From an uncultured Prevotellaceae bacterium (GTDB taxonomy: Bacteria; Bacteroidota; Bacteroidia; Bacteroidales; Bacteroidaceae), in contig CACXPX010000014.1 in the NCBI GenBank assembly GCA_902769705.1, forward strand, positions 464 through 64,463: a DNA stretch of 64,000 nt, read 5' to 3'. The translations under genes and the position numbers were made by a program. Below are positions 24,427 to 54,612 of this stretch, piece after piece; position 1 is the first letter of the stretch, and every line of letters starts with the position of its first letter. The notes under the pieces were generated by a model. That model saw only the letters and a program-made list of their open reading frames with translations, was not told the DNA's origin and did not search any database.

Positions 24427-24514
24427 TCATTAGCCCCTAATGGGCGTGTCATTAGCCACTAATGGGCGTGTCATTAACCCCTAATGAGGAGGTCATTAAC
24501 CCCTAATGAGGAGA
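24427..24514. repeat. 22-bp period tandem array, 4 units
   Basis: tcattagcccctaatgggcgtg / tcattagccactaatgggcgtg / tcattaacccctaatgaggagg / tcattaacccctaatgaggaga. Confidence 0.92.
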
Positions 24515-24523
24515 CCCCTCTCG

Positions 24524-25891
24524 TTACAAAAACATTGTCATTAGGGCGGGAAACAGTGTTGTTTCACCATCCTTTTTGTAATCCTTAGTATATACAAGAT
24601 AGCGGTTGCTGATGCGCTCTGAGTATTTCTTGCAGAACTCATCCAACGATTTGTGCGTTTTATAACCAGATGACTTGACTTCCAGAGGCCAAAGCTTTGC
24701 ACCACGTGAAAGCAGGAAATCGACCTCGTAATTATGGTTAGAGGTTTCTGATGGCCATGTATGGTAGAACAGTTTATTACCAGTAGCCGTAAGCATTTGC
24801 GCAACGATGTTTTCATAAACATAGCCAAGATTTGCGGAGAGCTTGTCGGAAAGCAGTTTCTGGTAGATGACATTCTCCGTAATATCCTTATCCCAGAAAG
24901 CAAGAGTTACAAAAAGTCCCGTGTCACCGACATACATCTTATATTGGTTATAATCCGTATGCATAGGCATACCTACATGAGGGTCGTTTGCATGATGGGC
25001 GAAATTGACAGTCAGACTGTCCTCCAAATCCCTTAGTAGTTCGTCCATCGTGTGCTTATCTTCACTTCGTCCAAGTACACTTGTGACCTGATAACGTGAA
25101 GCATTCTTAGACAATTCTGAAGGTATTCCGCTAAACAAACGTGAAACTTTGCCTGACGGGTCTATTTTCAGGAAATCATCATAGTAGAGTTCTATTATCT
25201 CCCTCTTCACCGAATCAACAAGACTAAGATTATTGGTGTTAATATATTCATCGACAGCCTGAGGCATCCCTCCAACAAGCATATAGAGGCGGAAATCACG
25301 CATAGCTTTACGGAAGGATTGCTGAAGAGGATGTCCTTTCTCATAGAATTCATGAAGCAAGGGAATTGTCGCAGTGTCACCCATAGCCCATCGGAACTCT
25401 TCATAATCCATAGGGTACATGGTGAGTCGCGTTTCCTCACTGGGAATGACAATACCCTTAGTGTTTTTCTTGATGGAGAGCAGCGAACCCGTCTCGATAT
25501 AATCATATCGATGGTCTTTCACTAAATATTTGATGGCTTGACGTACGGCTGGGCATTTCTGTATTTCATCGAAGATGATAACAGAGTGGCGTTCTATCAA
25601 CCTTACATTATAAATGAACTGGAGTTGGGTGAAAAAGTAGTTGCGATCTGAAATATGGTCTACAGCCGCCCAAAGTTCATCGGGGGCATCAGCGAAATCC
25701 ACGACTATGTAACTCTCATATTCATTGCGTGCAAACTCCTCAGCAATAGTAGATTTACCCACACGCCTTGCTCCTTTGATGAGTAGGGCTGTCTTACCAT
25801 CCCGCTCTTGTTTCCATTTGAGCATCGCCTCGTAGATTTTGCGCTTGAAAACTTTTTTCTCTGATTCCATTTCGTATCTAATATGCTGCAT
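24524..25891 (-). CDS. AAA+ ATPase with DUF4143 domain (start 25891 or 25870)
   Basis: GARRVGKS, FDEIQ, ETGSLL, GGMPQAV, D.GL, EVDFLL...EVKS; visibly AT-richer than flanking housekeeping genes. Confidence 0.92.
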   Translation of the reverse strand: MQHIRYEMESEKKVFKRKIYEAMLKWKQERDGKTALLIKGARRVGKSTIAEEFARNEYESYIVVDFADAPDELWAAVDHISDRNYFFTQLQFIYNVRLIERHSVIIFDEIQKCPAVRQAIKYLVKDHRYDYIETGSLLSIKKNTKGIVIPSEETRLTMYPMDYEEFRWAMGDTATIPLLHEFYEKGHPLQQSFRKAMRDFRLYMLVGGMPQAVDEYINTNNLSLVDSVKREIIELYYDDFLKIDPSGKVSRLFSGIPSELSKNASRYQVTSVLGRSEDKHTMDELLRDLEDSLTVNFAHHANDPHVGMPMHTDYNQYKMYVGDTGLFVTLAFWDKDITENVIYQKLLSDKLSANLGYVYENIVAQMLTATGNKLFYHTWPSETSNHNYEVDFLLSRGAKLWPLEVKSSGYKTHKSLDEFCKKYSERISNRYLVYTKDYKKDGETTLFPALMTMFL

Positions 25892-25899
25892 AGTGAATG

Positions 25900-25998
25900 C
25901 AAAGATAAACGTTTTTGTTAGAATCCCCAAATTTATTTCCATAAAAATGTATGGAATCCCCAAATTTTACACGAAAGAACCGTTCAAAATCCCCAAAT
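25900..25998 (-). promoter_or_regulatory. Promoter with three AATCCCCAAAT boxes at 33-bp period
   Basis: TATCTTTG 25907-25900; TTTG 25931-25928 inside box 1; boxes start at 25922, 25955, 25988. Confidence 0.75.
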
Positions 25999-26037
25999 GT
26001 TTACCAAAAGTTTTATTATTTGGTTACAATCTATAAA

Positions 26038-26077
26038 CAAAAAGCCCCGCTATGCACTGGTGGCATAACGGGGTTTT
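26038..26077 (-). terminator. Terminator of the nuo operon
   Basis: CCCCGTTATGC/GCATAGCGGGG stem plus T run. Confidence 0.8.
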
Positions 26078-26111
26078 GGGGGTATCGCTAATCAACAGCT
26101 GAAAAGGAGCG

Positions 26112-27572
26112 TCAGGCTCCTGTGACGCTGCTGAGCCAGCCGTAGATGCAGGAGAAGACTCCGAAGGCTACGATGCCCAGGGTGCAGAGGGCGAGGGCCA
26201 GCTTGGTGGCACGGTCGCTCTGGAATGCGGGCAGAGGAGCGGTGGTCTTCTTGATGTACATCTCCTTGACGATGAGCAGATAGTAGTAGAGGCTGGGAAC
26301 GGTGTTCACCAATGCCACGAACACTACGAAGTAGGCCCAGAAGGAACCTTGCTCGGCTGCTGCCATGAAGACGAAGAACTTGGAGAACATGCCTGCGAAG
26401 GGCGGGATGCCTGCCAGAGAGAACAGGGCGAGTGTCATGAGGAATGACAGACGCGGGTTGGTCTGGTAGAATCCGGCATAGCTGTCGCGCTGGGTGGTGC
26501 CTCCGTTGTTGTGCTCAACGACTGAGATGACGCTGAAGACGGCGAGGTTGGCTGCCACATAGATGAGCGTGTAGAACATCAGGGCGGTGAGTCCCATGGC
26601 TGAGTTTCCAATCACGGCGAGCATGATGTAGCCGGCCTGTGAAATGGAGCTGAAGGCCATGAATCGCTTGAGTTCCTTCTGTCGCATGGCGAAGAGGTTA
26701 CCAATGGTGATGGTGAGCACGATGACGATGTAGAGCAATGTCTCCCAATACTCGACGATGGGGCTGAAGACCTTCATCAGGATGGTGCAGAGGGCGAAGG
26801 CTGCGGCTCCCTTGGAGATGACGCTGAGGTATCCCGTGACGGGTGTGGGCGCTCCCTGATAGGTGTCGGCTGTCCAGAAGTGGAAGGGCACGAGGGAGAG
26901 CTTGAAGCCAAGTCCTGCGAAGAAGAACACGAGTCCCACGATGAGGAACACGGGGGTGTAGTAGGCGGCGCTCACGAGGGCGCTCATCTTGGCGGCTGCA
27001 TCGTCGAAGTAGAGTGTTCCGCATGCGCCATAGACGAAGGAGATGCCATAGAGCATGATGGCCGAGGAGAAGGTGGCGGTGAGGATGTACTTGGCGCCAG
27101 CCTCGGCAGAGACTTTCTTCCACTTGTCCATTGCCACGAGGCACGCCATGGGCACTGAGGCCATTTCGAGCCCGAGGAAGAACATGAGGAAGTGGCCGGA
27201 GGACATCATGACATACATGCCGAGCAGCGTGGAGACGATGAGCATGTAGAACTCGCCCTCGTAGCGGCGGGCCACGGGAGTGTTCTCAATCCACGTCTGT
27301 GCCATGATGCAGACCACGAGCGAACCGCCCGTGAGGATGAGCTTCATGGCGTTGGCGGCTGCCGTTGAGACATAGATGCCGCCAAACACTTCAGCAGGTG
27401 CTGCCAGGGCACAGGGAATGAGCTGCAGGAGCAGCAGCGTGTGGGCGAGGCAACGCAAGATGGAGTGTTTCTTCTCGCTCTTGTTGAGCGCGAAGTCGGC
27501 AAAGAACAATATTATCAGAATAGCTACCAGCGTAGCTTCTGGAATCATCTGTAAGAATTGTGAATAGTTCAT
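26112..27572 (-). CDS. nuoN: NADH-quinone oxidoreductase subunit N
   Basis: GLEMAS, FKLSLVPFHFWTADTYQGAP, LSLAGIPPFAGMFSK-type motif. Confidence 0.97.
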   Translation of the reverse strand: MNYSQFLQMIPEATLVAILIILFFADFALNKSEKKHSILRCLAHTLLLLQLIPCALAAPAEVFGGIYVSTAAANAMKLILTGGSLVVCIMAQTWIENTPVARRYEGEFYMLIVSTLLGMYVMMSSGHFLMFFLGLEMASVPMACLVAMDKWKKVSAEAGAKYILTATFSSAIMLYGISFVYGACGTLYFDDAAAKMSALVSAAYYTPVFLIVGLVFFFAGLGFKLSLVPFHFWTADTYQGAPTPVTGYLSVISKGAAAFALCTILMKVFSPIVEYWETLLYIVIVLTITIGNLFAMRQKELKRFMAFSSISQAGYIMLAVIGNSAMGLTALMFYTLIYVAANLAVFSVISVVEHNNGGTTQRDSYAGFYQTNPRLSFLMTLALFSLAGIPPFAGMFSKFFVFMAAAEQGSFWAYFVVFVALVNTVPSLYYYLLIVKEMYIKKTTAPLPAFQSDRATKLALALCTLGIVAFGVFSCIYGWLSSVTGA

Positions 27573-27589
27573 ATCGATTCCTCCTCCTT

Positions 27590-29089
27590 TTAAATTGTGG
27601 CCATAGCCGGATTAACTACTGAAAGAATGGGCACCAGAGCATTGTCGATGATGGGCTTGAAGAAGAACGGAGTGAGTCCGAGGCCAGCCACACAGAAGAT
27701 GAGGCAGGCAACGGCTATACGCTCGTCCCAAGTGGCATCGGTGAGCAGCTCGTAGTGGGGGTCGGCAACCTTGCCCATCAGAATCTTACCGGCCACGCGC
27801 AGGATATAGACTGCTGTGACCACGATGGATGTGCAGGCAATGATGGTGCAGACACGATGGAAGGTGTCGGCATTCTGGAACGAACCCACGAAGATGGTCA
27901 TCTCAGCCGTGAAGCCCGAGAAACCGGGAAGTCCGAGGTTGGCCAAACCGGCGATGAGATAGCCTACGGCAAGGAAGGGCATAATCTTCATCAGTCCGCC
28001 CAACTTGCGCACGTCACGGGTGTGGGTGCGGCCATAAATCATACCGATGAGGGCAAAGAAGAGGGCCGTCATCAAACCGTGGGAGAGCATCTGCAGGATG
28101 GCACCCGAGCAAGAGGTCTGCGTCATCATCAGCAGGGCAAAGAGCACCAGGCCGCAGTGGCTGACTGATGAATAGGCGTTGATGTACTTCAGGTCGGTCT
28201 GCACACAAGCCGAGAGGGCTCCATAGACCACGCTGATGGTGGTGAGGATGAGGAATATCCATGCCAGCTCCTGAGCAGCCTCAGGCAACAGGTACATGGC
28301 CACACGGAAACAGCCATAGCCTCCGAGCTTCATCAGCACTCCGGCATGGAGCATTGACACGGCTGTGGGGGCTGAAGCATGACCGTCGGGAGACCATGTG
28401 TGGAACGGGAACATGGCACCAAGCACGCCGAAGCCGATGAAGATGAACGGGAAGAACACCTTCTGGATGGCAACGGGGATGTTGTGCATGGTGGCAATCT
28501 CCACCACATTCATCGTTGAGGCTCCTGAGAAGAAATAGATGCCCAGGATGCCAATGATGAGCAGGGCGGAACCTCCCATGAGCATCAGGGTGAGCTTCAT
28601 GGCAGAATACTCCTTGGCTCCACTACCCCACACGCCGATGAGCAGATACATGGGGATGAGGGCCACCTCGTAGAACATGAACATCGTGAAGAGGTCGATG
28701 GTGATGAAGAATCCGAACACACCCGTGGAAAGCAGCGTGAACCAAAGGAAATACTCCTTGGTGAGCGGCTTGAGCTGCCATGAGGCGAAGGTTCCGGTGA
28801 AGACGATGATGCTCGACAGAAGCAACATCACCACCGAGATGCCATCAACGCCCACAGCATAGGCGATGTTCAGAGGTTTGAACCAAGGTATGCTATCAGC
28901 AAGCAGCATCACATCGGTATTACCAGCTGCACGCTGCTGAACGAAATATACGGTCAGCCAAATGGACAGGGCCAGCAAGCACGATGCACCGGCCACCATC
29001 ACACCACGCACCTGATTGAGATTCTTCGAGAGCCAAAGGCCCAGAAGCATCAGGACGGGGATTACTACGAATAGACTTAATATATTCAT
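27590..29089 (-). CDS. nuoM: NADH-quinone oxidoreductase subunit M
   Basis: FYEVALIPMY, PFHTWSPDGHASAP, KLGGYG, LGLPGFSGF. Confidence 0.97.
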   Translation of the reverse strand: MNILSLFVVIPVLMLLGLWLSKNLNQVRGVMVAGASCLLALSIWLTVYFVQQRAAGNTDVMLLADSIPWFKPLNIAYAVGVDGISVVMLLLSSIIVFTGTFASWQLKPLTKEYFLWFTLLSTGVFGFFITIDLFTMFMFYEVALIPMYLLIGVWGSGAKEYSAMKLTLMLMGGSALLIIGILGIYFFSGASTMNVVEIATMHNIPVAIQKVFFPFIFIGFGVLGAMFPFHTWSPDGHASAPTAVSMLHAGVLMKLGGYGCFRVAMYLLPEAAQELAWIFLILTTISVVYGALSACVQTDLKYINAYSSVSHCGLVLFALLMMTQTSCSGAILQMLSHGLMTALFFALIGMIYGRTHTRDVRKLGGLMKIMPFLAVGYLIAGLANLGLPGFSGFTAEMTIFVGSFQNADTFHRVCTIIACTSIVVTAVYILRVAGKILMGKVADPHYELLTDATWDERIAVACLIFCVAGLGLTPFFFKPIIDNALVPILSVVNPAMATI

Positions 29090-29090
29090 T

Positions 29091-29130
29091 TCGTGATATC
29101 GTTATTACGTTATATCGTTATGTCGTTATT
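29091..29130. repeat. Octamer tandem repeat (TCGTTATN)x5 filling the nuoL-nuoM spacer
   Basis: tcgtgata tcgttatt acgttata tcgttatg tcgttatt. Confidence 0.8.
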
Positions 29131-31117
29131 ACAAGGCAAGTAAAACGAGCGTTAGTGCAACTGCTCCGGTGAGGAACCACACCACATACTGGCGAACGTC
29201 ACCACTCTGCCAAGGACGCAGAGACTCACCTGCCTCGTTGGTGCCCCATGCCATGAAGTTGAATGTGCCATCGATAACACGACGGTCGAACCAAGCAATG
29301 GGCATAGAGACGCAACGGAAGATGATTTTATGGGTGACAAACTGCCATATCTCGTCCTGATAGAAACGCTTGTAGGCAGCGCGCCAGAGGTTCGGGAATG
29401 TCTTGTAGAGACGGTCGGCAATGGGTTGCTTCTCGCCCTTGAAGATATAGGTGGCAAGGCAGATGCTCAAGATGGCGATGACAGTAGAAGTCAAAGCAAT
29501 CTGATGGTCGAAGTGGATGGTGTAGTCCTGACCGTTGGCCGACACGAACGAACCGAACGAACCTCCCCAGCCGAGGAATCCGCCCAGCGTGGTGTAGATA
29601 CCTACGCCGAGCGTGATGCAGCAAAGGATGATGAGAGGAACGGTCATGGTGAGCGGAGCCTCGTGCGGAGTGTGATGCTCGTGGGCCTCAACATTCTCGG
29701 TTCCCCAGAAGATGCCATAGTAAAGGCGGAACATGTAGAAGGCTGTCATGGCGGCAATGCCTGTCATAATCCAACCCACCACAGGGCTATACTGGAAGCA
29801 GGCGGTGATAATCTCATCCTTCGAGCTGAAGCCCGAGAAGAACGGAATGCCTGCAATGGCCAGACAAGAGATGAGGAATGTCCAATGGGTGACGGGCATG
29901 TACTTGCGCAGACCTCCCATCAGGGCCATCTCGTTGGAGTGGACAGCATGGATGATGCATCCGGCACAAAGGAACAAGCAAGCCTTGAACATGGCGTGGG
30001 TGAACAGATGGAACATACCAGCCATGTAACCCAACTGCATGTGGTTGTCGAGAACGGCTCCGTGGCCAGGCAAGCAAACACCCAGAGCCACCATCATGAA
30101 GGCAATCTGAGAGATGGTTGAGAAGGCCAGCACACGCTTGATATCGGTTTGGGCACAAGCCACAGCAGCGGCATAGAAAGCGGTAAACACGCCCACCCAC
30201 ACGATGACCGACATGGCCTGGGGCGCATATTCAATCCACAAGGGGAACATGCGGGCCACCTGGAACACACCAGCCACAACCATCGTGGCAGCATGGATGA
30301 GGGCAGAGACAGGCGTCGGGCCTTCCATGGCGTCGGGCAGCCAGATGTGCAACGGGAACATGGCACTCTTACCAGCTCCACCAATGAACATCAGCACCAA
30401 GGCTGTGGGCAGGATGAAGGAACCAGCGGCAACAGCCCGTGCAGCACTACCCTGGATGAAGGGAGTGGTTCCGGCACCCATCACGATGTCGGGCACAAAA
30501 GAGAAGCTGAACGAACGGGTGTAGTAGCCGAAGATGAGGATACCAATCAAGAAGAACATATCGGCGAAACGTGTCACGATGAATGCCTTCTTGGAAGCAG
30601 CCACAGCAGCACCCAGCGGATAGTAGAAGCCGATGAGCAGGTAGCTGCTCACACCCACGAGCTCCCAGAACATGTACATCTGGAAGATGTTGGTGGCCAA
30701 CACAAGTCCGAGCATTGACATCGAGAACAGGCTCAGGAACGCATAGTAGCGCTGGAAGCCCTTCTCGCCATGCATGTAGCCGAAGGAGTAGATGTGTACC
30801 ATGAGCGACACCGTGGAGATGACGATGAGCATCACCACAGAGATGGGGTCGAGCAAGATACCCATATCGAAATGCAGGTTGCCCAAAGGCAGCCATGTGA
30901 AGTTATAAGGCACAAAGGTCTGGAAGACTCCTTCAGCCGTACGCCCGTCGGTGAAGAAATACTGGAACGCAGTCAGATAGCTGATGAGCGTCACCAATCC
31001 GAGCGAGCATGTGCCAATGAGCCCTGCCGTCTTGTGCGACATCTTCATTCCCGCAAGTCCTAATACAACGAATGAGAGCAGGGGAAGAAGAAGTATCAAA
31101 AATGAATATTCGTACAT
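29129..31117 (-). CDS. nuoL: NADH-quinone oxidoreductase subunit L
   Basis: WELVGVSSYLLIGF, GKSAMFPLHIWLPDAMEGPTPVSALIHAATMV. Confidence 0.98.
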   Translation of the reverse strand: MYEYSFLILLLPLLSFVVLGLAGMKMSHKTAGLIGTCSLGLVTLISYLTAFQYFFTDGRTAEGVFQTFVPYNFTWLPLGNLHFDMGILLDPISVVMLIVISTVSLMVHIYSFGYMHGEKGFQRYYAFLSLFSMSMLGLVLATNIFQMYMFWELVGVSSYLLIGFYYPLGAAVAASKKAFIVTRFADMFFLIGILIFGYYTRSFSFSFVPDIVMGAGTTPFIQGSAARAVAAGSFILPTALVLMFIGGAGKSAMFPLHIWLPDAMEGPTPVSALIHAATMVVAGVFQVARMFPLWIEYAPQAMSVIVWVGVFTAFYAAAVACAQTDIKRVLAFSTISQIAFMMVALGVCLPGHGAVLDNHMQLGYMAGMFHLFTHAMFKACLFLCAGCIIHAVHSNEMALMGGLRKYMPVTHWTFLISCLAIAGIPFFSGFSSKDEIITACFQYSPVVGWIMTGIAAMTAFYMFRLYYGIFWGTENVEAHEHHTPHEAPLTMTVPLIILCCITLGVGIYTTLGGFLGWGGSFGSFVSANGQDYTIHFDHQIALTSTVIAILSICLATYIFKGEKQPIADRLYKTFPNLWRAAYKRFYQDEIWQFVTHKIIFRCVSMPIAWFDRRVIDGTFNFMAWGTNEAGESLRPWQSGDVRQYVVWFLTGAVALTLVLLAL

Positions 31118-31129
31118 AATCCTAATAAT

Positions 31130-31438
31130 TTACCATTTCATATTTTCAATACTGTTCACCTGATCACTCTTGAAGTTGCGGTAAACGTTGATGATGATAG
31201 CGATAGCAACGGCACTCTCGGCAGCACTCACACCGATGGAGAACAGGGTGAAGAAGAAGCCTTCGAGCTGGCCGGGGAAGAGGATGCGATTGAACACGGC
31301 AAAGTTGATGTCTACAGCGTTCAACACCAGTTCAACCGAGATGAGCATCGCAATGAGGTTGCGACGGGTCACAAAGCCAAAGAAGCCTATGAAGAACAAC
31401 AAGGCACTCAGCACGAAATAAAACTCAACAGGTATCAT
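31130..31438 (-). CDS. nuoK: NADH-quinone oxidoreductase subunit K
   Basis: RRNLIAMLISVELVLNA, AAESAVAIA. Confidence 0.97.
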   Translation of the reverse strand: MIPVEFYFVLSALLFFIGFFGFVTRRNLIAMLISVELVLNAVDINFAVFNRILFPGQLEGFFFTLFSIGVSAAESAVAIAIIINVYRNFKSDQVNSIENMKW

Positions 31439-31959: not shown

Positions 31960-31964
31960 ATCCT

Positions 31965-32498: not shown

Positions 32499-32513
32499 AT
32501 TTTCTATTATACC

Positions 32514-33602: not shown

Positions 33603-33672
33603 AATATCAGTTCTTTAGTTTATTAGTCTCTGAGTTCTTTCTTAAAACTTACAAACTCATCAACTTATTAAC

Positions 33673-36319: not shown

Positions 36320-36364
36320 AATAATTTATAACGTTATAATATTAAATACGCTTTTAAGTGAGTG

Positions 36365-36372
36365 CAAAGGTA
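36365..36372 (-). promoter_or_regulatory. -7 box of the nuo operon
   Basis: TACCTTTG, 45 nt before the nuoA ATG. Confidence 0.7.
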
Positions 36373-36426
36373 ATAATAATTTTGCGAATATTTCACATTA
36401 TTAATGGAAAAAAACAGTATAAATAC

Positions 36427-39061: not shown

Positions 39062-39080
39062 AATATTTACATTTTACAAT

Positions 39081-40250: not shown

Positions 40251-40254
40251 ATCA

Positions 40255-41367: not shown

Positions 41368-41368
41368 A

Positions 41369-42658: not shown

Positions 42659-42714
42659 TGTCAGCTAAGAGGGTTTTGATATTAAACGATTGTTGGTAGT
42701 CGATTAAGACTTTG

Positions 42715-42722
42715 CAAAGATA
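42715..42722 (-). promoter_or_regulatory. -7 box of the leftward mannan operon
   Basis: TATCTTTG. Confidence 0.7.
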
Positions 42723-42925
42723 TAACTTATTTTTCAAAAACAACAATACTTTTTTGACCAATATCAACACTTTATCTGCTATTTCTTTGACAATGGCACT
42801 TACAACACCCTCTTTTTCTGCAATAGTTGCACTATAAATCCTTCCAATTCAACCTTTTCTATACGCGTACATTTTATAATTGAAAACTATCAGCAGAAAA
42901 GTCTTATTGACTTTCTTTGAGCATG

Positions 42926-43030
42926 TCACATGTGGCATCTGAGGGTGTCACTTATATCGTCTGACCCGCTCACATGTGGCATCTAAGCCCCTCACATGTG
43001 GCATCTGAGGACGTCATTTGTGGCCTTTGA
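42926..43030. repeat. 22-bp period tandem array, 5 units, core TCACATGTGGCATCTGA
   Basis: Units start at 42926, 42948, 42970, 42992, 43014. Confidence 0.88.
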
Positions 43031-43163
43031 CAAAGCCAAATGCCCTTCTTTAGGAAACCCCAAGGCACCCGTTGCCATCCAACCAATAAAACAAGGAAAT
43101 AAAAAAGGCAAAATAGTACAAGTATTCAACAAAAAAATATTATATTATTTACATTTTTATATA

Positions 43164-43171
43164 TAACTTTG
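43164..43171 (+). promoter_or_regulatory. -7 box of the susC operon
   Basis: TAACTTTG in AT-rich context. Confidence 0.7.
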
Positions 43172-43381
43172 CAGCGGATAATGAAACACATGTCCATCAA
43201 CCTAAGATAACTAAGTATAATACGTAACATAAAAACCTACTACATTATGAGCAAAAACAATTCGCCCTAACTTTAGGATCTTCGCGATTTCAAACGGATT
43301 ACGAAAGATCATCCAACAAAAGAGAGAACAAACCTAAGCACTATACTACAGTAGTGCCATTAACCAAAACAACAAAAATGT

Positions 43382-46696: not shown

Positions 46697-46715
46697 CATA
46701 AAGGAGACAATTATT

Positions 46716-48458: not shown

Positions 48459-48482
48459 CAAACATATACATTACTATATATT

Positions 48483-49742
48483 ATGAAAAGATTATTCAAC
48501 AGTCTGCTCATGCTCTCGGCCTTAGCTGCATCCTTGGCTTTCACCGCCTGCGAGGACGAGCCAGACAAATATGAGATCAGCGGGGGAACACCAACCATCC
48601 GCTACATACGTCCCGTGAATATTGAAAGTGCCGACTCCATCTTGACCGGCGCTTACATGGACAACAGCATCTGCATCGTGGGAGAGAACCTGCGTAGCAT
48701 CACAAAGATGTTCTTCAACGACCAGGAAGCTAAGCTCATTCCGAGCCTGATGACAGACCACACCATGATTGTAACCGTCCCCGGACAAATCCCCGACGTG
48801 GTGTACAACAAGATTTTCATGGTGAACAACTCCAACGACACGACCACTTACGATTTCAAGGTGCTCGTACCTGGACCCAACATCAACAACATGAGCAACG
48901 AGTGGGCAAAAGCCGGAGAGCAGGCCACCATCTATGGCAACTACTTCGTAGACGACCCCAACACTCCGCTCACGCTGACCATCAACGGCAGGAAGGTGAA
49001 TATTGACGACTTCACGATTAGCACTATCACGTTCACCGTGCCCGAAGGACTAAGCGAAGGTCCGATTGAAATCTCATCTGTCTATGGCAAGAAGAAAGCC
49101 CGCTTCAACTATCGCGACACACGTGGCATGCTGTTCGATGACTGGGATAACGGCTGGCCCGACGACTATGCCAACGGTCAGTTCAAGCACGGATGGCACG
49201 GCGCAAGAATCTCCAACGACGAATACTCCCTCGACGGCTACTACCTGCTGCTGGGTGACGTTGACTTCACCGACGGTGCTTGGGATGATTCAAACCTCTG
49301 CTTTGAATACTGGCCGGAAGCCACCGACCGTCTGTCAGACCGCGTCAGCTTTGCAAACTTCGCCAATATGGCCTTGAAGTTCGAGGTGAACATCCCGTCA
49401 AGCAATCCCTGGACCAACCTCTCCATGCAGTGTATCTTCACTGGCGACGCACAGGTGACAAATGCTACAGCCAACAACACTTTCTTCCATGATGTGGACT
49501 ATCCTCGTGGACTGTGGACTCCTTGGTACCAGACCGGTTCCTACGACACCGGCGGCAAATGGGTGACCGTCACCCTGCCTCTCTCCACCTTCAAGTATCT
49601 GGAGGACGGAACGCCGGCAGGCACCCCGCTTACTGCTGAGAACTTCACCGGTTTGACGCTCTTCATCTGGAATGGTGTGCAGAACGGCACCACCTGCCAT
49701 CCAATCATCCGTATCGACAACATCCGTGCGGTAGAGTTATAA
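48483..49742 (+). CDS. Surface glycan-binding lipoprotein (IPT/TIG domains plus C-terminal binding domain)
   Basis: Lipobox FTAC-EDE; I.GENL and IYGNYF IPT-like motifs; Trp-rich C-terminus; position after susD. Confidence 0.82.
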   Translation: MKRLFNSLLMLSALAASLAFTACEDEPDKYEISGGTPTIRYIRPVNIESADSILTGAYMDNSICIVGENLRSITKMFFNDQEAKLIPSLMTDHTMIVTVPGQIPDVVYNKIFMVNNSNDTTTYDFKVLVPGPNINNMSNEWAKAGEQATIYGNYFVDDPNTPLTLTINGRKVNIDDFTISTITFTVPEGLSEGPIEISSVYGKKKARFNYRDTRGMLFDDWDNGWPDDYANGQFKHGWHGARISNDEYSLDGYYLLLGDVDFTDGAWDDSNLCFEYWPEATDRLSDRVSFANFANMALKFEVNIPSSNPWTNLSMQCIFTGDAQVTNATANNTFFHDVDYPRGLWTPWYQTGSYDTGGKWVTVTLPLSTFKYLEDGTPAGTPLTAENFTGLTLFIWNGVQNGTTCHPIIRIDNIRAVEL

Positions 49743-49763
49743 AACATCTAAACACTTAAGACA

Positions 49764-51617
49764 ATGAAACTATATCATAAAATATCAGCATTGGCCATGG
49801 CTGCTTTGGTAGTTGCGACTGGATTCACCAGTTGTAGCGAGGATGACCTCGACACCAACCAGTACAACAAAAGCGGCGTGAACATCCTTGGTTTCGGTCC
49901 CATGCCAATCACACGTGGCGAAACCATGCGCGTGACAGGCACAAAATTGAACAAAGTGAGAGAGGTGCTTTTCCCCGAAGGCAATCAGAAACTCGCACCA
50001 GCCACCACCTTCATTAAGGGTGATTTCACGGTCCAGAACTCCGAGGAGATGACCGTGACGATTCCCGACCTGTGCGTTCCTGGCAAGCTTCGTTTGCTGA
50101 CCGATAGTGGCGACACCATCGTATCTGCCTCCAACATCACCTTCACCGAGGAGATAAAAGTTACTTCCTTCTCCCCCACTTCCATTCATCCGGGAGACAT
50201 CCTGACCATCAAGGGAGAATATGTATGGAACATCGGCCAAATGGTCTTCTTCGACCATGTGGCTGTTAACGCCGAAGACTTCATCCGCAACACCCGCAAC
50301 GAGATTCAGGTGCGTGTGCCGATGGAAGCCAAGAGCGGAGAGTTGGTTTATAACGACGGTTCTGACGGAGCCGAGAACATTGTGATTGGCAATCTCAACG
50401 TAGATGCAGCCAAGGCAACGGGTGTATCGAATGCCAATCCCGAGTTCAACGAGACCATCACCATCACAGGTGAGAACCTCGACCTTGTCACCGGCATCGA
50501 CTTCCCCGCCGTGGCAGAAGTTCCCTTCACCATCGTCAATGGCAATTCCATTCAGGTGACAGTTCCCGCCAACACCGTTTCTGGTACCGTAACCTTACAC
50601 ACGGCTTCCGGACTGACCACATCGGTTGACATCACCGTGCCTCTGGCAAGCGTAAGCAGTACCGACCCCGTCGACGATGTGAAGGTTGGACAAACCATCA
50701 CCATCAAGGGTGAGAAGCTCGACCGCATCACCCAGCTCAAGCTTCCCGGAATCAGCGAACCGCTTGAAAAGGGACAATTCACCCAGAGCGCCACACAAAT
50801 CACCTTCGTCGTTCCCAAGGACATGGGCGATGGCAAGGTGACGCTCATCCAGCATGAGAACTGGAGCGTAGAGTCTGGCAAAATCACCATGCATAGCGAC
50901 CTGCCCGAACAGGCTATCTGGAGCGGCGAGTTTGTCTGCTCTGGTTGGAATGGCAACCAGGATTTGGCATGGGGTAACTTCGACTGGACAACCATCGAGG
51001 CTGGCACCAAGGTGATGTTCTACTTTAAGAAGAACAATCCCGGGCAATGGGGTTGTATCAGCTTGCGCCACGGCAAGGATTGGGGCAATCTGCCCGCTCC
51101 GATACCCGGACAGTATGACCTCGACGAAGACGGAGGTGTGCTGAGCGTAGTCTTCCCGCAGAACGTGCTCGACGACATCATCGCCAACAACGGACTGGTT
51201 ATCACGGGCGACAACTACACCCTGACCAAGGTGGCTGTGCCACTTCCTGTCACCGAGGTGACGATTTGGCAAGGCAACGAAGACTTGAGCGACGGCCACC
51301 AGCCCTTCATCGGTAGCGACGGTGGCGCAGAGTTTGCAACCAACAACGTCCACGCCGGACAGGTGGTGAAGTTCTATTTCACCACACCAAGCGACGCATG
51401 GTGGTTCCAGGTGTTCGAAGGTCATTGGGGACCCATGTATGGCGAATGGAAGGGCGAGAATCCCGATGACGCTGCACAAGTGGCTGCCGAAGGATGCATC
51501 AAACTGAAGCTCACCCAAGAGATGATTGACGCCGCACTTACACAAGGCTGGTGGGGAGGCATCTTCGTGGTGCAAGGTTCCGTGACGCTGACCAAGGTTA
51601 CCGTAGCCGATGCATAA
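49764..51617 (+). CDS. Surface glycan-binding lipoprotein with repeated IPT/TIG domains
   Basis: Lipobox FTSC-SEDD; repeated ITIxGENL/GEKL motifs; two Trp-rich C-terminal modules. Confidence 0.82.
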   Translation: MKLYHKISALAMAALVVATGFTSCSEDDLDTNQYNKSGVNILGFGPMPITRGETMRVTGTKLNKVREVLFPEGNQKLAPATTFIKGDFTVQNSEEMTVTIPDLCVPGKLRLLTDSGDTIVSASNITFTEEIKVTSFSPTSIHPGDILTIKGEYVWNIGQMVFFDHVAVNAEDFIRNTRNEIQVRVPMEAKSGELVYNDGSDGAENIVIGNLNVDAAKATGVSNANPEFNETITITGENLDLVTGIDFPAVAEVPFTIVNGNSIQVTVPANTVSGTVTLHTASGLTTSVDITVPLASVSSTDPVDDVKVGQTITIKGEKLDRITQLKLPGISEPLEKGQFTQSATQITFVVPKDMGDGKVTLIQHENWSVESGKITMHSDLPEQAIWSGEFVCSGWNGNQDLAWGNFDWTTIEAGTKVMFYFKKNNPGQWGCISLRHGKDWGNLPAPIPGQYDLDEDGGVLSVVFPQNVLDDIIANNGLVITGDNYTLTKVAVPLPVTEVTIWQGNEDLSDGHQPFIGSDGGAEFATNNVHAGQVVKFYFTTPSDAWWFQVFEGHWGPMYGEWKGENPDDAAQVAAEGCIKLKLTQEMIDAALTQGWWGGIFVVQGSVTLTKVTVADA

Positions 51618-51644
51618 GCGAGACCTTTGTTAGCACTAACCATC

Positions 51645-51678
51645 AAGAGCGCTCCTCCCCACCGAGGGGCGCTCTTTT
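51645..51678 (+). terminator. Internal terminator of the PUL
   Basis: GAGCGC.CCTC/GAGGGGCGCTC stem plus TTTT. Confidence 0.7.
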
Positions 51679-51730
51679 CCCCATTCTTATATCTTTTCAA
51701 ACAACACCCTACGACTACATATCAATAAAA

Positions 51731-53191
51731 ATGAAAAAACTCTACTCATTAGCTTTGTCCATCACGATGCTCATCGGACTGGTGGCGGGAATGACATCCT
51801 GTGGCGACGACGATGAGAATGAAGACCCCGTCGAGCCGAAGATAACCATCAGCTTGCGTTCGTGTAGCATCAGCGAAGGAACCGAATACAACGCCACCGA
51901 CTTGAAGGAAGTCACCCTTTCCTACAATAACGTGGTGACCGTCAGCCCGTCGGCAAACATCACGCTTAACGGTACGAAGTGCACGGCCAAGTCGGGCAGC
52001 ACAACCGCCATGGACGTGGTCATCAACTTGCCGGCGTTGGAAGATGGCACAAGCTACAAACTTGACATTCCAGCCGGAAGCATCGTCAGCAAGACCGACC
52101 CCACCGTTTCGGCACCAGCCCTTCAGGTGAACTTCACCACCAAAGCAAAAGCCTCGGTCAACATTCCCGCCCAACCCATCACTGCATCCACCGAAGCGGC
52201 CAAGAAACTATACACCTTTTTCCGCAACAACTATGGGAAGAAAGTGGTTTCGAGCGTCATGGCCGACGTGAATTGGAACACCAGAATAGCCGAGAAGGTG
52301 AAGACTCTCACGGGCAAGTATCCCGCCATGAACTGTTTCGACTTCATACATGTCTATGTGCCCAACCAAGGCAACAATGGATGGATTGACTATACCGATA
52401 TCAAACCCGTGCGCGAGTGGGCAGAGGCAGATGGAATCGTTCAGCTGATGTGGCACTTCAACGTTCCCCTGAGCGAAACCACAGAGGTGAAAACCAATGG
52501 CTCTGGCGTCACCTGCACACCCTCGGAGACCACCTTCAAGGCTGCTAACGCGCTGAAGGAAGGCACGTGGGAGTACAAGTGGTTCTATCAGGAGATGGAC
52601 AAGGTCATAGACGTGGTGCTGAAGCTACAGGATGCCGGCATCGCCGCTACCTGGCGCCCATTCCATGAGGCAGCCGGCAACGCCACCCTTCGTTCGGGCG
52701 AGCCTTGGGGCAAAGCATGGTTCTGGTGGGGTTACGATGGAGCCGGTACGTTCAAGCAGCTCTGGACCGCCATGTACGACTACTTCCATCAGAAAGGCGT
52801 GAACAACCTTATCTGGATATGGACCACACAAAACTATAACGGCAGTTCCACGACCTATGCACAAGACACCGACTGGTATCCTGGTGACCGCTATTGCGAC
52901 ATGGTGGCCCGCGACCTCTATGGTTGCAATGCCGACGTCAACGCTCAGGAATTCGACGAAATACAAGCCCGATACCCCACGAAGATGGTTGTCTTGGGCG
53001 AATGCGGGAAAAGTGGTGCCAACGAGCCGGGGCTCATCGGCGACTGCTGGGCAAAAGGCGCACGCTGGGGCCATTTCATGGTTTGGTATCAAGGCGGACA
53101 AGGCAGCACCGACAGCATGTGTGGCGACGCTTGGTGGAAAGATGCCATGCAAAGTGATGTAGTCCTCACGCGCGACGAAGTAACTTTCTGA
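51731..53191 (+). CDS. GH26 mannanase with N-terminal Ig-like domain, surface lipoprotein
   Basis: Lipobox MTSC-GDDDENED; WRPFHEAAGN, WFWWG, VLGECG. Confidence 0.92.
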   Translation: MKKLYSLALSITMLIGLVAGMTSCGDDDENEDPVEPKITISLRSCSISEGTEYNATDLKEVTLSYNNVVTVSPSANITLNGTKCTAKSGSTTAMDVVINLPALEDGTSYKLDIPAGSIVSKTDPTVSAPALQVNFTTKAKASVNIPAQPITASTEAAKKLYTFFRNNYGKKVVSSVMADVNWNTRIAEKVKTLTGKYPAMNCFDFIHVYVPNQGNNGWIDYTDIKPVREWAEADGIVQLMWHFNVPLSETTEVKTNGSGVTCTPSETTFKAANALKEGTWEYKWFYQEMDKVIDVVLKLQDAGIAATWRPFHEAAGNATLRSGEPWGKAWFWWGYDGAGTFKQLWTAMYDYFHQKGVNNLIWIWTTQNYNGSSTTYAQDTDWYPGDRYCDMVARDLYGCNADVNAQEFDEIQARYPTKMVVLGECGKSGANEPGLIGDCWAKGARWGHFMVWYQGGQGSTDSMCGDAWWKDAMQSDVVLTRDEVTF

Positions 53192-53223
53192 AGTTATTTT
53201 TTGGCCGTTTCTTCCTTTTTGTG

Positions 53224-53231
53224 TATCTTTG
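53224..53231 (+). promoter_or_regulatory. -7 box before the third GH26
   Basis: TATCTTTG. Confidence 0.65.
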
Positions 53232-53267
53232 CACGCACAACCTAAGGACTACATATTACTAACGAAC

Positions 53268-54449
53268 ATGAAGAAACTAAGCTTTATTGCGTGGCTCACC
53301 ATGAAGGCCATCTGTACATGCGCCTTTTGTATCACACCACTGGTTTCGTGCAACACGAAGAACGCCAACACATTTGCCGATTCCGGCCGTACACAACCCA
53401 CCGAGAACCTGCTGGCCAACCTGAAGGCATTGGGCGACTCCGTAGGCTACATGTTCGGTCATCACGACGACGTGCTCTACGGCATCGGATGGGTGGGCGA
53501 CTCCGCCCGTAGCGACGTGAAGAGCGTCTGTGGCGACTACCCTGCCCTGCTCTCCTTCGACCTCGGACACCTGGAGCTGGGCGACACCGTCAGCCTCGAT
53601 GGCGTGTCGTTCAACCGCATGCGCGAAGAAATCGTACGCCACTTCGAACGTGGGGGCATGGTCACTCTTTCGTGGCATCTCAACAACCCGCTCACAGGCG
53701 GCACGGCATGGATAAACGACAGCACAGGCGAACGCCAACTCAACACCGTTGAAGCCGTGCTCGAGGGGGGAAAGCAGCACGAGAGGTTCCTCACGTGGCT
53801 CGACCGCGTAGCCGACTTCCTTAACTCGCTCCAAACTGCCGACGGCGTGCGCGTTCCCGTGCTCTTCCGCCCTTGGCACGAACACACCGGGTCGTGGTTC
53901 TGGTGGGGACAGGAGCTCTGCTCAGCCGAACAATACAAGGCGCTCTGGAAACTCACCGTAGACAGACTCAAAGAGCAAGGTGTGGTGAACGCCCTCTACG
54001 CCTATTCGCCCGGAACCGAGAACGGAGGCAACCCGCAGAAATACATGGAGCGCTATCCGGGTGACAACATCATCGACCTGCTTGGGCTCGACTGCTATTG
54101 CTTCGCTCCATCGGGCGATGCCGATGCCGTAGCCAAATATGCACAAATGCTCGACACCCAACTGGGCATGGTCTGCAAGCTGGCAAAACAACACTCTAAA
54201 GCCGTAGCTCTGACCGAGACAGGATACGAAGGCATCAAGACCACCAAATGGTGGACCCACACTTTGATGCCCGTGCTCGACAAGCATCCCATCAGCTACG
54301 TCCTTGTGTGGCGTAATGCCCACGACAAGCCTGGCCACTTCTTTGCGCCCTACCCCGGCCACTCATCGGCCCCTGACTTCGTGGAGTTCTACAACCATCC
54401 GAAGTCCCTCTTCCTCCACAATGTGAACGGCCTCTATCAAGAGAAATAA
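53268..54449 (+). CDS. GH26 beta-mannanase, lipoprotein (paralog of 40255-41367)
   Basis: LVSC; FGHHDD, FRPWHEHTGSWFWWG, ALTETG. Confidence 0.93.
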   Translation: MKKLSFIAWLTMKAICTCAFCITPLVSCNTKNANTFADSGRTQPTENLLANLKALGDSVGYMFGHHDDVLYGIGWVGDSARSDVKSVCGDYPALLSFDLGHLELGDTVSLDGVSFNRMREEIVRHFERGGMVTLSWHLNNPLTGGTAWINDSTGERQLNTVEAVLEGGKQHERFLTWLDRVADFLNSLQTADGVRVPVLFRPWHEHTGSWFWWGQELCSAEQYKALWKLTVDRLKEQGVVNALYAYSPGTENGGNPQKYMERYPGDNIIDLLGLDCYCFAPSGDADAVAKYAQMLDTQLGMVCKLAKQHSKAVALTETGYEGIKTTKWWTHTLMPVLDKHPISYVLVWRNAHDKPGHFFAPYPGHSSAPDFVEFYNHPKSLFLHNVNGLYQEK

Positions 54450-54482
54450 CTCCCCTTACCCCCTAGGGAACTGAACAAACAA

Positions 54483-54528
54483 ATCCGCACCATCCCGAAT
54501 GCCGTCGAGTTGGTGCGGATATTTTATT
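54483..54528 (+). terminator. Terminator at the PUL end
   Basis: ATCCGCACCA/TGGTGCGGAT stem plus ATTTTATT. Confidence 0.7.
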
Positions 54529-54529
54529 A

Positions 54530-54612
54530 TCACATATGGCATCTGAGGCGCTTAGGTGATACACCTGAGGGGCTTACATGCCACACCTGACAGGCTCAGA
54601 AGGGGCAAGTGA
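54530..54612. repeat. 22-bp period tandem array, 4 units, same core family as 42926
   Basis: tcacatatggcatctga / ttaggtgatacacctga / ttacatgccacacctga / tcagaaggggcaagtga. Confidence 0.8.

Follow-up and report, generated by a model that had tools for sequence, protein, structure and literature searches.

Modular intergenic repeats composed of tandem units are already known from BrickBuilt and from REP/BIME sequences, the closest known counterparts of the repeats treated here. In BrickBuilt, a minisatellite-containing MITE of Porphyromonas gingivalis (Klein et al. 2015, PMC4596501), direct repeats of 23 nt follow one another without spacers between a leader and a tail; it has about 19 intergenic copies, some of which are armless. 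The 22-bp repeat family described here was set side by side with it by description, the BrickBuilt unit being published as a logo figure (PMC4596501). The two resemble each other in several respects: (i) both occur in Bacteroidales and are built of short tandem units, 23 nt long in BrickBuilt and 22 in the present family, which show dyad symmetry and a mixture of conserved and variable positions, (ii) BrickBuilt repeats lie between a non-repetitive leader and tail, and related loci of the present family have arms of about 110 and 195 bp, (iii) one arm or both can be missing from BrickBuilt copies, and none is detectable around the three arrays A1, A2 and A3 studied here, (iv) there are tens of copies per genome, only intergenic and in all gene orientations, and (v) unit number differs between strains and an Rfam match is absent. 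They differ in period, which is 23 nt in BrickBuilt and strictly 22 here, and in the likeness of units within an element, which is 89-100% in BrickBuilt, whereas here most inner positions can differ. In addition, the IS5-type TIR GAGACCTTTGCA/TGCAAAGGTCTC of BrickBuilt is not found within 500 bp of the arrays examined, the ends here being TTGTCAA/TTGACAA, and BrickBuilt is confined to P. gingivalis and P. gulae, whereas the 22-bp family extends over many Prevotellaceae and other Bacteroidales.

REP/BIME sequences of Proteobacteria, which are bound by the host proteins gyrase and IHF, are likewise short imperfect extragenic palindromes present in tens to hundreds of copies and in regularly spaced clusters, with a short invariant tag, a stem that differs between lineages and few copies in divergent promoter regions. 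The defining mark of REPs is a tetranucleotide, GTAG or CGTC, that is conserved at one palindrome end (PMC3733652); the 22-bp units, which end in TCA/TGA, have no such tag. Moreover, REP/BIME repeats alternate in orientation and have variable linkers, whereas the present units follow one another head to tail strictly every 22 bp, measure only 17 bp with a centre of 1-3 nt, and carry no strand-specific signature. No RAYT (Y1 transposase) is encoded in the 64-kb window or recurs near the arrays. The Neisseria dRS3 repeats are 20 bp long, with conserved inverted ends ATTCCC...GGGAAT around a variable centre; they are intergenic, form mosaic arrays with NIMEs, flank longer RS units and serve as phage or IS110-type integration targets. 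As far as this general background goes, the dRS3/NIME likeness lies in the conserved inverted terminal bases around a variable centre, the dispersed intergenic location and the mosaic arrays, while the termini, length and phylum are different, contiguous 22-bp arrays are absent there, and no link to an integration target was seen here. The sequence-only reading of this DNA had put the arrays forward as its best candidate for an undescribed genome-wide system; that the kind is undescribed is not supported in view of these precedents and of the related copies found in leader-array-tail elements, and the 22-bp family is apparently a variant, so far undescribed, of a familiar type of dispersed repeat.

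Arrays and neighbouring repeats in the window

The window, i.e. the whole 64-kb stretch of DNA that was analysed, contains the following features.

24427-24514, no strand given: array A1, four units at a 22-bp period
42904-43035, plus strand: array A2, a degenerate unit at 42904 and then five good units starting at 42926
54530-54617, plus strand: array A3, four units
24537-24553: GTCATTAGGGCGGGAAA, possibly a further unit in decay, one 22-bp unit gap out of register with A1; a weak call, read from the sequence
24103-24338: 236-bp unit with 19-nt inverted repeats at its bounds, in the region from which 66-bp phasing had been claimed
25922/25955/25988: three direct repeats ATCCCCAAAT(T/G)T, in the region of 33-bp phasing

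The three arrays lie at the places first given for them. The 17-bp T(C/T)A-N11-T(G/A)(A/G) core followed by a 5-bp spacer, repeated strictly every 22 bp as originally described, is indeed present in all three, and the spacers are GC-rich as stated (A+T 0.27-0.59 at unit positions 18-22). Chains of at least two TYA-N11-TRR units at lag 22 occur in the window solely at A1, A2 and A3, which are also the only lag-22 signals in an unbiased lag-autocorrelation scan; first-order Markov shuffles of the window gave 0.19 chains of at least two units and zero of at least three, and 0.00 matches to the 4-unit pattern are expected from 100 dinucleotide shuffles. The 33- and 66-bp phasing is real but is not part of the 22-bp family, the TCA-N11-TGA frame being absent from both regions. 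The idea of a family defined by geometry rather than sequence is borne out across genomes and was overstated inside the window, where A2 and A3 have a near-identical unit in common (TCACAT(G/A)TGGCATCTGAGG) and the units are drawn from a limited, lineage-specific vocabulary. No leader or tail arms were detectable around A1, A2 and A3.

A1 is composed of TCATTAG-CCC-CTAATGG GCGTG (twice, once with CCA) and TCATTAA-CCC-CTAATGA GGAGG/GGAGA, each core being a 7+3+7 near-palindrome, and TTTTG stands directly before it (TRF: period 22, 3.8 copies, 90% matches). It is flanked by the stop codon of an AAA_14/DUF4143 ATPase gene (24524, minus strand) and by a hairpin and T-run (about 24360-24407) that was read by eye and at which the terminator scan made no call; by its position between the two, A1 should therefore sit in the 3' UTR of the ATPase gene. 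The possible decayed unit overlaps the final codons of the ATPase ORF (repeat family D8, TCATTAGGGCGG). A longer version of A1 is present on one X6 contig, and in related strains the word depth of A1-type units is about 2-3x that of the flanks.

A2 begins with a degenerate unit TTATTGACTTTCTTTGA, continues with TCACATGTGGCATCTGA (three copies, one ending TAA), TCACTTATATCGTCTGA and TCATTTGTGGCCTTTGA, and closes with TGA followed by CAAAG (TRF: period 22, 4.9 copies, 68% matches). It occupies the divergent region between an AXE-GH26-GH130-MFS-epimerase operon (minus) and a susC/D operon (plus), where the susC promoter and the 5' end of its mRNA follow 130-290 bp downstream of the array; a -7 box TAACTTTG (43164-43171) lies between A2 and the nearby RNA contig starts (43187-43209). 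Its word depth is 5-15x that of the flanks, and all 6 units are retained at 97.7% identity in the ortholog L097.

A3 lies in the same orientation as A2, on the other side of one PUL operon, where the PUL's last GH26 gene is its neighbour on one side and a gene for a 489-aa protein without Pfam match on the other. Its units are, in order, TCACATATGGCATCTGA GGCGC, TTAGGTGATACACCTGA GGGGC, TTACATGCCACACCTGA CAGGC and TCAGAAGGGGCAAGTGA CAAAA, the first two matching units 1-2 of composite family C. In four strains its word depth is 10-14x that of the flanks, and neither unit gain nor unit loss was found at the orthologous site; the ortholog L108 differs from A3 by 1 change in 88 bp.

Copy number, taxonomic spread and composite elements

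A geometry-only pattern scan of 596 Gb returned at least 92 loci against about 2 expected by chance. Among 80 listed matches, 52 are from Prevotella/Prevotellaceae and 11 from other Bacteroidales, proportions that are indicative only, and the matches outside Bacteroidota are simple single-unit tandem repeats. The units of A1-A3 are 3-15x over-represented in metagenomes holding this rumen Prevotella, and the extra array-word depth comes from other contigs at host-genome depth. Copies per genome (depth excess 3-15x, and one MAG with at least 13 loci among the matches listed) are in line with the about 10-20 of a BrickBuilt-like family. Individual units, and complete arrays of several units, are found again at many loci, in several species. 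The check for excess, on which the claim of one genome-wide, genus-wide family depended, thus gave a clear excess, and A1-A3 are real members of a repeat family that is scattered between the genes of Prevotella and of gut bacteria related to it. No further arrays were found in about 700 kb searched, i.e. arrays are sparse.

Independent minisatellites would be a different origin: replication slippage would have built each array from a 22-bp seed at its own locus, and the arrays would have the TCA...TGA frame in common through coincidence or ascertainment. A1, a simple 90%-identical tandem repeat, would fit this, as would the single-unit repeats outside Bacteroidota and the fact that arrays were chosen by motif in both the first reading and the follow-up. 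However, most inner positions differ within one array while the frame is kept, the matches centre on one bacterial family, and a TTG...CAA bracket is about 17-20 fold enriched (TTG before 17 of 67 arrays, CAA after 20 of 67, about 1 expected each). The recurrence of units and arrays at many loci largely refutes this origin, which we consider very improbable.

Many of the related copies elsewhere sit centrally in leader-array-tail elements, which are conserved and measure about 400 bp. The arms of these elements (about 110 and 195 bp) are conserved across loci and species with motifs at fixed offsets, and the outer ends of the elements carry the same motif inverted, TTGTCAA/TTGACAA. A1-A3 are tied to these composite elements by shared units and frame alone. 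In family C, units 1 and 3 stay constant (N11 identity 0.90 and 0.80), while units 2, 4 and 5 (0.39-0.46) are more variable than the adjacent spacers (0.48-0.65).

Arrays are retained in L097, L108 and strains X2-X6, and five species at about 80% protein identity have no array upstream of their orthologous AXE genes; the time scale on which arrays are gained is thus that of species. Among close strains, arrays show 4 changes in 220 positions against 36 in 751 for adjacent intergenic DNA (Fisher p=0.054, a trend), which could reflect host-level constraint. Neither a mobilising enzyme nor a target-site duplication was found, nor any empty-site/filled-site pair whose boundaries are exact, so that mobility is something we infer.

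Genomic context, transcription and DNA symmetry

The arrays examined are all intergenic (40 co-directional, 6 divergent and 11 convergent contexts, divergent regions being depleted), and their orientation relative to genes is arbitrary. No protein family recurs beside them, and the association with susC is not beyond chance. A promoter- or terminator-linked regulatory system is not supported, given the occurrence in every intergenic context, the depletion of divergent regions, the lack of a gene-family link and the absence of arrays from the orthologous site in species at about 80% protein identity. If the arrays affect the adjacent mannan PUL or defence island at all, this is probably incidental.

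Described machinery could also be invoked, namely Rep iterons, Tn7/Mu-type transposase sites, a degenerate CRISPR or UG27-type retroelement ncRNA arrays. Indeed, 4-7 direct units at a 22-bp period are typical of iteron origins and of TnsB-binding sites. Furthermore, the UG27 arrays of Bacteroidota phages combine conserved structure with variable sequence (10.64898/2026.09.22.753630). However, no cas, RT, Rep, tns or other transposase gene (Y1 included) is present in the window or recurs beside the arrays examined. As claimed from the outset, the arrays are not CRISPR: in CRISPR arrays, repeats of 23-48 bp alternate with unique spacers of like length, next to a leader and usually cas genes, whereas here long unique spacers are absent, no cas genes lie in the window, and one complete period takes up just 22 bp, 5 bp of it spacer. 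Plasmid-type iterons, near-identical direct repeats beside a rep gene and an AT-rich unwinding element, are rejected on units that differ within arrays, on the lack of rep in the window or near arrays and on tens of copies per chromosome; Tn7/Mu-type ends, whose 22-bp transposase-binding sites are inverted at the two ends and flank tnsB/MuA-type genes, on the direct, not inverted, arrangement of A2 and A3 around an ordinary PUL, with no transposase genes; and UG27 arrays on their units of 135-167 nt, which are transcribed and accompanied in prophages by an RT and two accessory genes, as against 22-nt units with no RT nearby and, for A2 and A3, no RNA contigs. It is hardly credible that any of these accounts for the arrays.

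Transcribed hairpin repeats could act as RNA, either as a REP-like block to 3'-end exonucleases or terminator, or in the manner of small RNAs or a protein sponge. Several observations would suit this: palindromes of the 7+3+7 or 8+1+8 type are frequent among the units and differ in a compensatory way from lineage to lineage, A1 has a stop codon on one side and the hairpin and T-run read by eye on the other, and A3 on the plus strand folds better than shuffles (z=-3.1). Against this, A2 and A3 had no RNA contigs in eight metatranscriptome runs in which the flanking genes were covered (low-depth contigs, better for presence than absence), the composite element L098 was not found in true metatranscriptomes, and A2 lies upstream of the susC mRNA 5' end. 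Rfam gave no match, gene-relative orientation is arbitrary, and single-strand DNA folding is mostly unremarkable (z-scores -0.6 to -3.1), with no dominant structure. Inner pairs are Watson-Crick in 46-62% of units, i.e. only about half, against 26-35% in shuffles, and the mismatches comprise 145 G.T and 147 A.C, with per-array skew not significant (p=0.058), so neither strand is favoured. Action as RNA is, on these data, quite unlikely.

Over 282 unique units, TCA/TGA is conserved at 92-100% and positions 4-14 are near-uniform; the ends extend to TGTCA/TGACA. Units of one array keep the frame while most inner positions can differ, and asymmetric cores share one orientation within most arrays, the units being head to tail at 22 bp. 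Half-site 8-mers common to left and right positions number 61 (null mean 37, maximum 48). Since no strand bias is seen and 8-nt half-sites are reused on both sides, the unit looks like a double-strand, dyad-symmetric DNA feature.

Such a feature would also suit host cis-elements, i.e. phased binding platforms for a conserved dimeric nucleoid-associated or regulatory protein, kept by selection and not selfish, with 4-6 dimers per DNA face acting as insulators, domain boundaries, gyrase-type topological sites or upstream regulatory arrays. In favour of these are the invariant TCA/TGA with fixed spacing over two helical turns, the dyad half-sites in both orientations, the alternation of AT-rich and GC-rich segments at about 11 bp, a modestly raised predicted curvature (arrays 0.942, flanks 0.957, shuffles 0.974), the conservation trend among close strains and the bracketing of one PUL operon by A2 and A3; E. 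coli BIME-2 clusters, moreover, are gyrase-binding sites. However, related species have no arrays at the orthologous sites, there is no gene-class or above-chance susC association, few arrays lie in divergent promoter regions and none further were found in about 700 kb. No curvature is predicted for A2 (0.973) and A3 (0.993), six specified bases per unit are scant information for a specific protein, and no candidate protein was found. Host cis-elements are possible, though rather unlikely.

Preferred reading and significance

On balance, with moderate confidence, we take A1-A3 to be 'naked' (armless) copies of a non-coding, DNA-level family of dispersed repeats that occurs in Prevotellaceae and some other Bacteroidales. 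Its building brick is 22 bp long: a 17-bp dyad of two inverted 8-nt TCA+5 half-sites with one central base, and a 5-bp GC-rich spacer. An array has 4-8 bricks placed head to tail, typically with TTG before the first and CAA after the last, and the inner bases are drawn from lineage-specific vocabularies reused in either orientation within an invariant frame. The family may spread and be homogenised as a non-autonomous element through copying, gene conversion or inter-locus recombination, with whole cores swapped at the invariant TCA/TGA boundaries and unit number altered by slippage or unequal exchange. What keeps the frame constant would be a conserved protein, acting in trans, that reads the TCA/TGA (TGTCA/TGACA) half-sites as pairs in double-stranded DNA; this putative reader may be an enzyme that mobilises or processes the repeats, or else a DNA-binding protein of the host that they have co-opted. 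The dyad half-sites, the lack of strand-biased wobble, the invariant TCA/TGA and the lack of RNA contigs over A2 and A3 are compatible with recognition by a putative dimeric DNA-binding protein.

A purely selfish element does not obviously fit the family-wide survival of TCA/TGA and of the 22-bp period through full turnover of the inner bases, and it leaves the alternation of constant and hypervariable units in family C unexplained. It is conceivable, if improbable, that a conserved Prevotellaceae-wide protein reads TCA-N11-TGA dyads at 22-bp phase and that constant anchor units alternate with cassette-like units, their 11-bp cores being swapped among a lineage-specific set of words, forming a DNA-level recognition or record-keeping array.

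The non-coding DNA of Prevotella and relatives is almost unstudied, though these bacteria are dominant in the rumen and in many human guts. Contigs end inside arrays, so the family breaks short-read assemblies; the arrays may help to flag mis-binned contigs in MAGs and could serve as a strain-typing marker. If the family is only a selfish repeat, this still accounts for the arrays and extends BrickBuilt-type elements well beyond Porphyromonas. A constant frame around inner bases that turn over across a bacterial family points to a trans-acting factor, and identifying this putative factor would give a new mobilisation enzyme or chromosome-architecture protein in Bacteroidales. Should a conserved reader with swapped cores prove true, the arrays would be addressable and actively diversified, without a described counterpart, and not a passive selfish repeat.

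Arrays of the window and their chromosomal setting

The sequence-only reading had claimed three intergenic arrays with a period of 22 bp, in which each unit consists of a 17-bp TYA-N11-TRR core and a 5-bp spacer. Cut in this register, the three arrays (A1, A2 and A3) read as follows:

Arrays of 22-bp units in the window (core, then spacer)
A1, 24427-24514: TCATTAGCCCCTAATGG GCGTG / TCATTAGCCACTAATGG GCGTG / TCATTAACCCCTAATGA GGAGG / TCATTAACCCCTAATGA GGAGA
A2, 42904-43035: one degenerate unit, then TCACATGTGGCATCTGA GGGTG / TCACTTATATCGTCTGA CCCGC / TCACATGTGGCATCTAA GCCCC / TCACATGTGGCATCTGA GGACG / TCATTTGTGGCCTTTGA CAAAG
A3, 54530-54617: TCACATATGGCATCTGA GGCGC / TTAGGTGATACACCTGA GGGGC / TTACATGCCACACCTGA CAGGC / TCAGAAGGGGCAAGTGA CAAAA

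The claim is confirmed by the register cut and by three further analyses. Indeed (i) Tandem Repeats Finder gives a period of 22 at A1, A2 and A3 alike, (ii) chains of at least two TYA-N11-TRR units at lag 22 occur in the window at A1-A3 only, against 0.19 chains of at least two units and none of at least three in Markov shuffles of the window, and the four-unit pattern does not occur in 100 dinucleotide shuffles, and (iii) A1-A3 are the only lag-22 signals of the window in a motif-free autocorrelation scan. Solitary bracketed units (TGTCA-N11-TGACA) show no enrichment (4 observed, 3.5 expected). The 66-bp and 33-bp phasing that had been associated with the arrays does exist but is unrelated to them. 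The former is due to a 236-bp unit outside the 22-bp family (24103-24338), with 19-nt terminal inverted repeats (GAGTTTTTTTCGAGTTTTT / AAAAACTCGGAAAAAACTC, 95% complementary) and internal CAAAAACTCGG copies 66 bp apart, which looks like a small MITE; the latter consists of three direct ATCCCCAAAT(T/G)T copies with an exact 33-bp spacing (at 25922, 25955 and 25988, span to 25999). These copies lie immediately upstream of the minus-strand AAA_14/DUF4143 ATPase gene and could serve as an operator or as upstream promoter repeats.

The window comes from the core chromosome of an uncultured Prevotella of the rumen: its DNA occurs in bovine and sheep gut metagenomes, and the closest proteins carry the name Prevotella sp. 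Among its genes are those for ATP synthase, PFK and glycosyltransferases, the nuo operon, uvrA and a mannan polysaccharide utilization locus (PUL). No cas, RT, Rep, integrase, transposase or tRNA gene was found in the window. Plasmid iterons, suggested at first by the 22-bp period, were rejected because the window is core chromosome and contains no rep gene. A2 is located in the divergent region between an AXE-GH26-GH130-MFS-epimerase operon and a susC/D-SGBP-GH26-GH26 operon, and A3 directly after the last GH26 gene. For a 489-aa protein encoded further on (54694-56163), which lacks a Pfam domain, hundreds of homologues exist at 42-95% identity, all of them in Prevotella-type metagenome contigs; the gene neighbourhood of this protein is not conserved beyond ~95% identity. 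A1 lies directly after the ATPase gene, beside a strain-variable island of defence type (20443-25963) with the following genes:

Mrr nuclease, 20443-21342
GmrSD_N+HNH nuclease, 21356-22543
EcoRI-like adenine methylase, 22549-23688
AAA_14/DUF4143 ATPase, 24524-25963, minus strand

Three related strains (X2, X4 and X6) lack the ATPase flank, which makes the island variable at strain level. Terminator hairpins were seen by eye beside A1 and A3, yet a terminator scan called neither. Upstream of the methylase gene, a non-coding segment (23600-24010) is covered by rumen metagenome contigs at 50-500x the depth of the host genome, with peaks at 23723-23804 and 23887-24010 and numerous joints skipping ~23650-23940. 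The segment includes a hairpin of the C(UUCG)G type and matches nothing in Rfam, plasmids or phages; it could belong to a very widespread mobile element or represent a conserved RNA or leader not described so far.

Distribution and anatomy of the 22-bp family

In contigs of related strains, word depth over the arrays exceeds that of their immediate flanks 5-15x at A2, 10-14x at A3 and 2-3x at A1. This excess comes from other contigs at host-genome depth, whose loose ends carry further units (e.g. TCACTTGTGGCTTCTGA). A geometry scan of one genome per bacterial or archaeal species (596 Gb) for TCA-N11-TRR-N5, two TYA-N11-TRR-N5 units and then TYA-N11-TGA matched at least 92 loci, where about 2 are expected by chance; the excess elsewhere in the genus on which the proposed family depended is thus clear. 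Among 80 matches listed, 52 belong to Prevotella/Prevotellaceae and 11 to other Bacteroidales (Phocaeicola oris, Mediterranea, Ca. Bacteroides spp. and unnamed MAGs), and those from other phyla are mainly simple tandem repeats of a single unit. A1-A3 are therefore members of a dispersed, genus-wide family. At least 13 loci were matched in a single MAG, RGIG7546; a search with a relaxed detector across ~700 kb of Prevotellaceae sequence surrounding matched loci added no array, which points to tens rather than hundreds of arrays per genome. In one Prevotella contig of this MAG (L002), a tmRNA gene (RF00023, 76 bits) and a composite array element lie ~840 bp apart (segments 1-208 and 1051-1177). 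Genes for tmRNA are common integration sites. Three loci (L014, L021 and L077) of a MAG labelled Paratractidigestivibacter sp. have Prevotella-type arrays and conserved flanks, and over 400 bp the flanks of L014 share 84-86% identity with a Prevotella contig (L030). Mis-binning of Prevotella contigs into an actinobacterial MAG is the probable explanation.

In 282 unique Bacteroidota units, positions 1-3 are TCA and positions 15-17 TGA in 92-100%, and base use is near uniform at positions 4-14. The spacer usually starts with CA and ends with G, which extends the half-site to TGTCA/TGACA, and arrays are preceded by TTG in 17 of 67 cases and followed by CAA in 20 of 67 (about 1 expected each). 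Inner positions pair by complementarity in 46-62% of units (26-35% in shuffles), and perfect palindromes with very different stems are numerous (e.g. TCAGAAAGGCTTTCTGA, TCAGAGATGGTCTCTGA, TCATTCCATTGGAATGA, TCACAGTACTACTGTGA). The 8-nt half-sites form a small vocabulary per lineage and can be used on either side: 61 are common to left and right positions (null mean 37, maximum 48), and in 90 of 307 cases the left half of one unit recurs, reverse-complemented, as the right half of a different unit of its array. Mismatches of the G.T and A.C types occur in nearly equal numbers (145:147), and the skew per array is not significant (p=0.058). Taken together, these features indicate a symmetric property of double-stranded DNA and not a one-strand structure.

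Two other explanations of the frame were rejected. A six-frame stop-codon barrier (TYA and TRR being stops on both strands, with 22 mod 3 = 1) does not agree with the use of TGA in >90% of units, although the search pattern also accepted TAA, TAG and TGG for most units; what the units prefer is a sequence and not just any stop. Intrinsic (static) curvature, predicted with wedge parameters, has only a weak average effect (0.942 in arrays against 0.957 in flanks), A2 and A3 being straight.

Elsewhere, numerous arrays form composite elements with conserved flanks, or arms, one ~110 bp and the other ~195 bp long, which recur at several loci per genome and across species. Three composite families share one motif order: TTTACAAA(A/TT), ~20 nt on CAATCTAGA(G/A)A, ~50 nt on the array, then a palindrome (AATTCTCTAGAGAATT) in one family or a hairpin in another, then TTTTTCGCG, and TTGTCA/TTGACAA at the outer end. 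These motifs are almost confined to the sides of arrays, at fixed offsets (e.g. -113 and -85). In one of these families (family C), both outer ends carry inverted TTGTCAA/TTGACAA, the motif that also brackets the arrays themselves. Its units 1 and 3 are constant (N11 identity 0.90 and 0.80), and its units 2, 4 and 5 are hypervariable, with an N11 identity of 0.39-0.46 against 0.48-0.65 for the adjacent spacers. Since the cores vary more than the spacers beside them, whole cores would have been replaced and not slowly mutated. No arms are detectable around A1-A3; units 1-2 of A3 match units 1-2 of family C, and A2 uses words of this family too.

Transcription, gene context and turnover

A known RNA family was rejected, as Rfam scans returned nothing relevant at the gathering threshold (window and 12 related loci) or with permissive settings around A1. 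The susC operon is represented by RNA contigs in four metatranscriptomes; these start at 43187-43209, just after a -7 box of the canonical Bacteroidota type (TAACTTTG, 43164-43171), implying a susC 5' UTR of ~175-195 nt, and A2 ends 130 bp upstream of this box. No RNA contig covers A2 there, and none covers A3 in four runs in which contigs over GH26 extend to 54468 and those over the following gene begin at 54686; low-depth assembled contigs of this kind show presence better than absence. The units being multi-copy, stable array transcripts of any locus should appear on A2 or A3, and none did. A composite element of a rumen contig (L098) is likewise absent from true metatranscriptomes, and a transcribed element was rejected on these grounds. 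By position, A1 would lie within the 3' UTR of the ATPase gene, the RNA comparison having covered A2 and A3. Single-strand folding gives z-scores of -0.6 to -3.1 without a dominant structure; with these weak scores and no G.T/A.C strand bias, a single-strand hairpin function was also rejected. As far as the data go, the arrays are not RNA.

All arrays examined among related loci are intergenic, in co-directional (40), divergent (6) and convergent (11) contexts, and divergent regions are under-used relative to 50:25:25 (p=0.006, from crude ORF calls). The orientation of asymmetric units has no fixed relation to adjacent genes, and no recurrent protein family, transposase included, was found near arrays. 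A susC gene is near ~3 of 60 arrays, which is the chance level, and no array is present upstream of the AXE gene in five Prevotella species whose AXE protein is ~80% identical. PUL/susC regulatory sites were rejected for the last two reasons, and no regulatory role of the arrays is indicated.

In close relatives, arrays are kept at orthologous loci with unchanged unit number. The ortholog of A2 (L097) is 97.7% identical over the array and 97.6%, 90.6% and 97.7% over flanking segments, that of A3 (L108) has 1 change in 88 bp, and strains X2-X6 show no indel at A2 or A3. The 90.6% segment, from A2 to the susC promoter (43036-43163), is a local hypervariable patch beside neighbours at 97.6-97.7%. 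Pooled changes (4/220 bp in arrays, 36/751 bp in adjacent intergenic DNA, p=0.054) show a borderline trend towards stronger conservation of the arrays, which is not proof of constraint. One contig of X6 has a longer A1-type array. Kept in close relatives and absent at ~80% identity, the arrays are acquired on a species-level time scale and thereafter fairly stable.

Comparison with known systems and nature of the family

CRISPR, which the sequence-only reading had ruled out as well, plasmid iterons and Tn7-type ends are excluded on their defining features, and the recently described UG27 ncRNA arrays on unit size and context. The closest described element is BrickBuilt of Porphyromonas gingivalis, which combines a leader, a run of tandem 23-nt units and a tail in ~19 intergenic copies, some of them armless, with unit numbers that differ between strains (PMC4596501). 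The Prevotella family works like BrickBuilt but departs from two of its defining features, the period (22 against 23) and the IS5-type terminal repeats, none of which was found around Prevotella arrays; the degree of unit variation within one array differs too. REP/BIME clusters are a second analogue, whose GTAG/CGTC tag and alternating orientation are absent from the Prevotella arrays. No description of the Prevotella family was found in the literature searched, most subscription journals lying outside the search, so this absence is not proof.

The family is most likely a dispersed, non-autonomous, DNA-level repeat built from 22-bp dyad bricks, of which A1-A3 would be three armless copies. 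Its copies may have spread and been homogenised by copying and recombination between loci, cores being exchanged at the invariant TCA/TGA boundaries, and the frame would owe its preservation to a conserved protein that recognises paired TCA/TGA half-sites in duplex DNA. Binding of such a putative protein to the arrays is plausible. It may be a mobilising enzyme or an architectural protein of the host; the latter is the main rival reading, and a less likely one. For a dispersed repeat of dyad bricks, the point of note is a frame held across a whole bacterial family while its content turns over completely, with constant units alternating with cassette-like units and the frame recognised by a putative factor.
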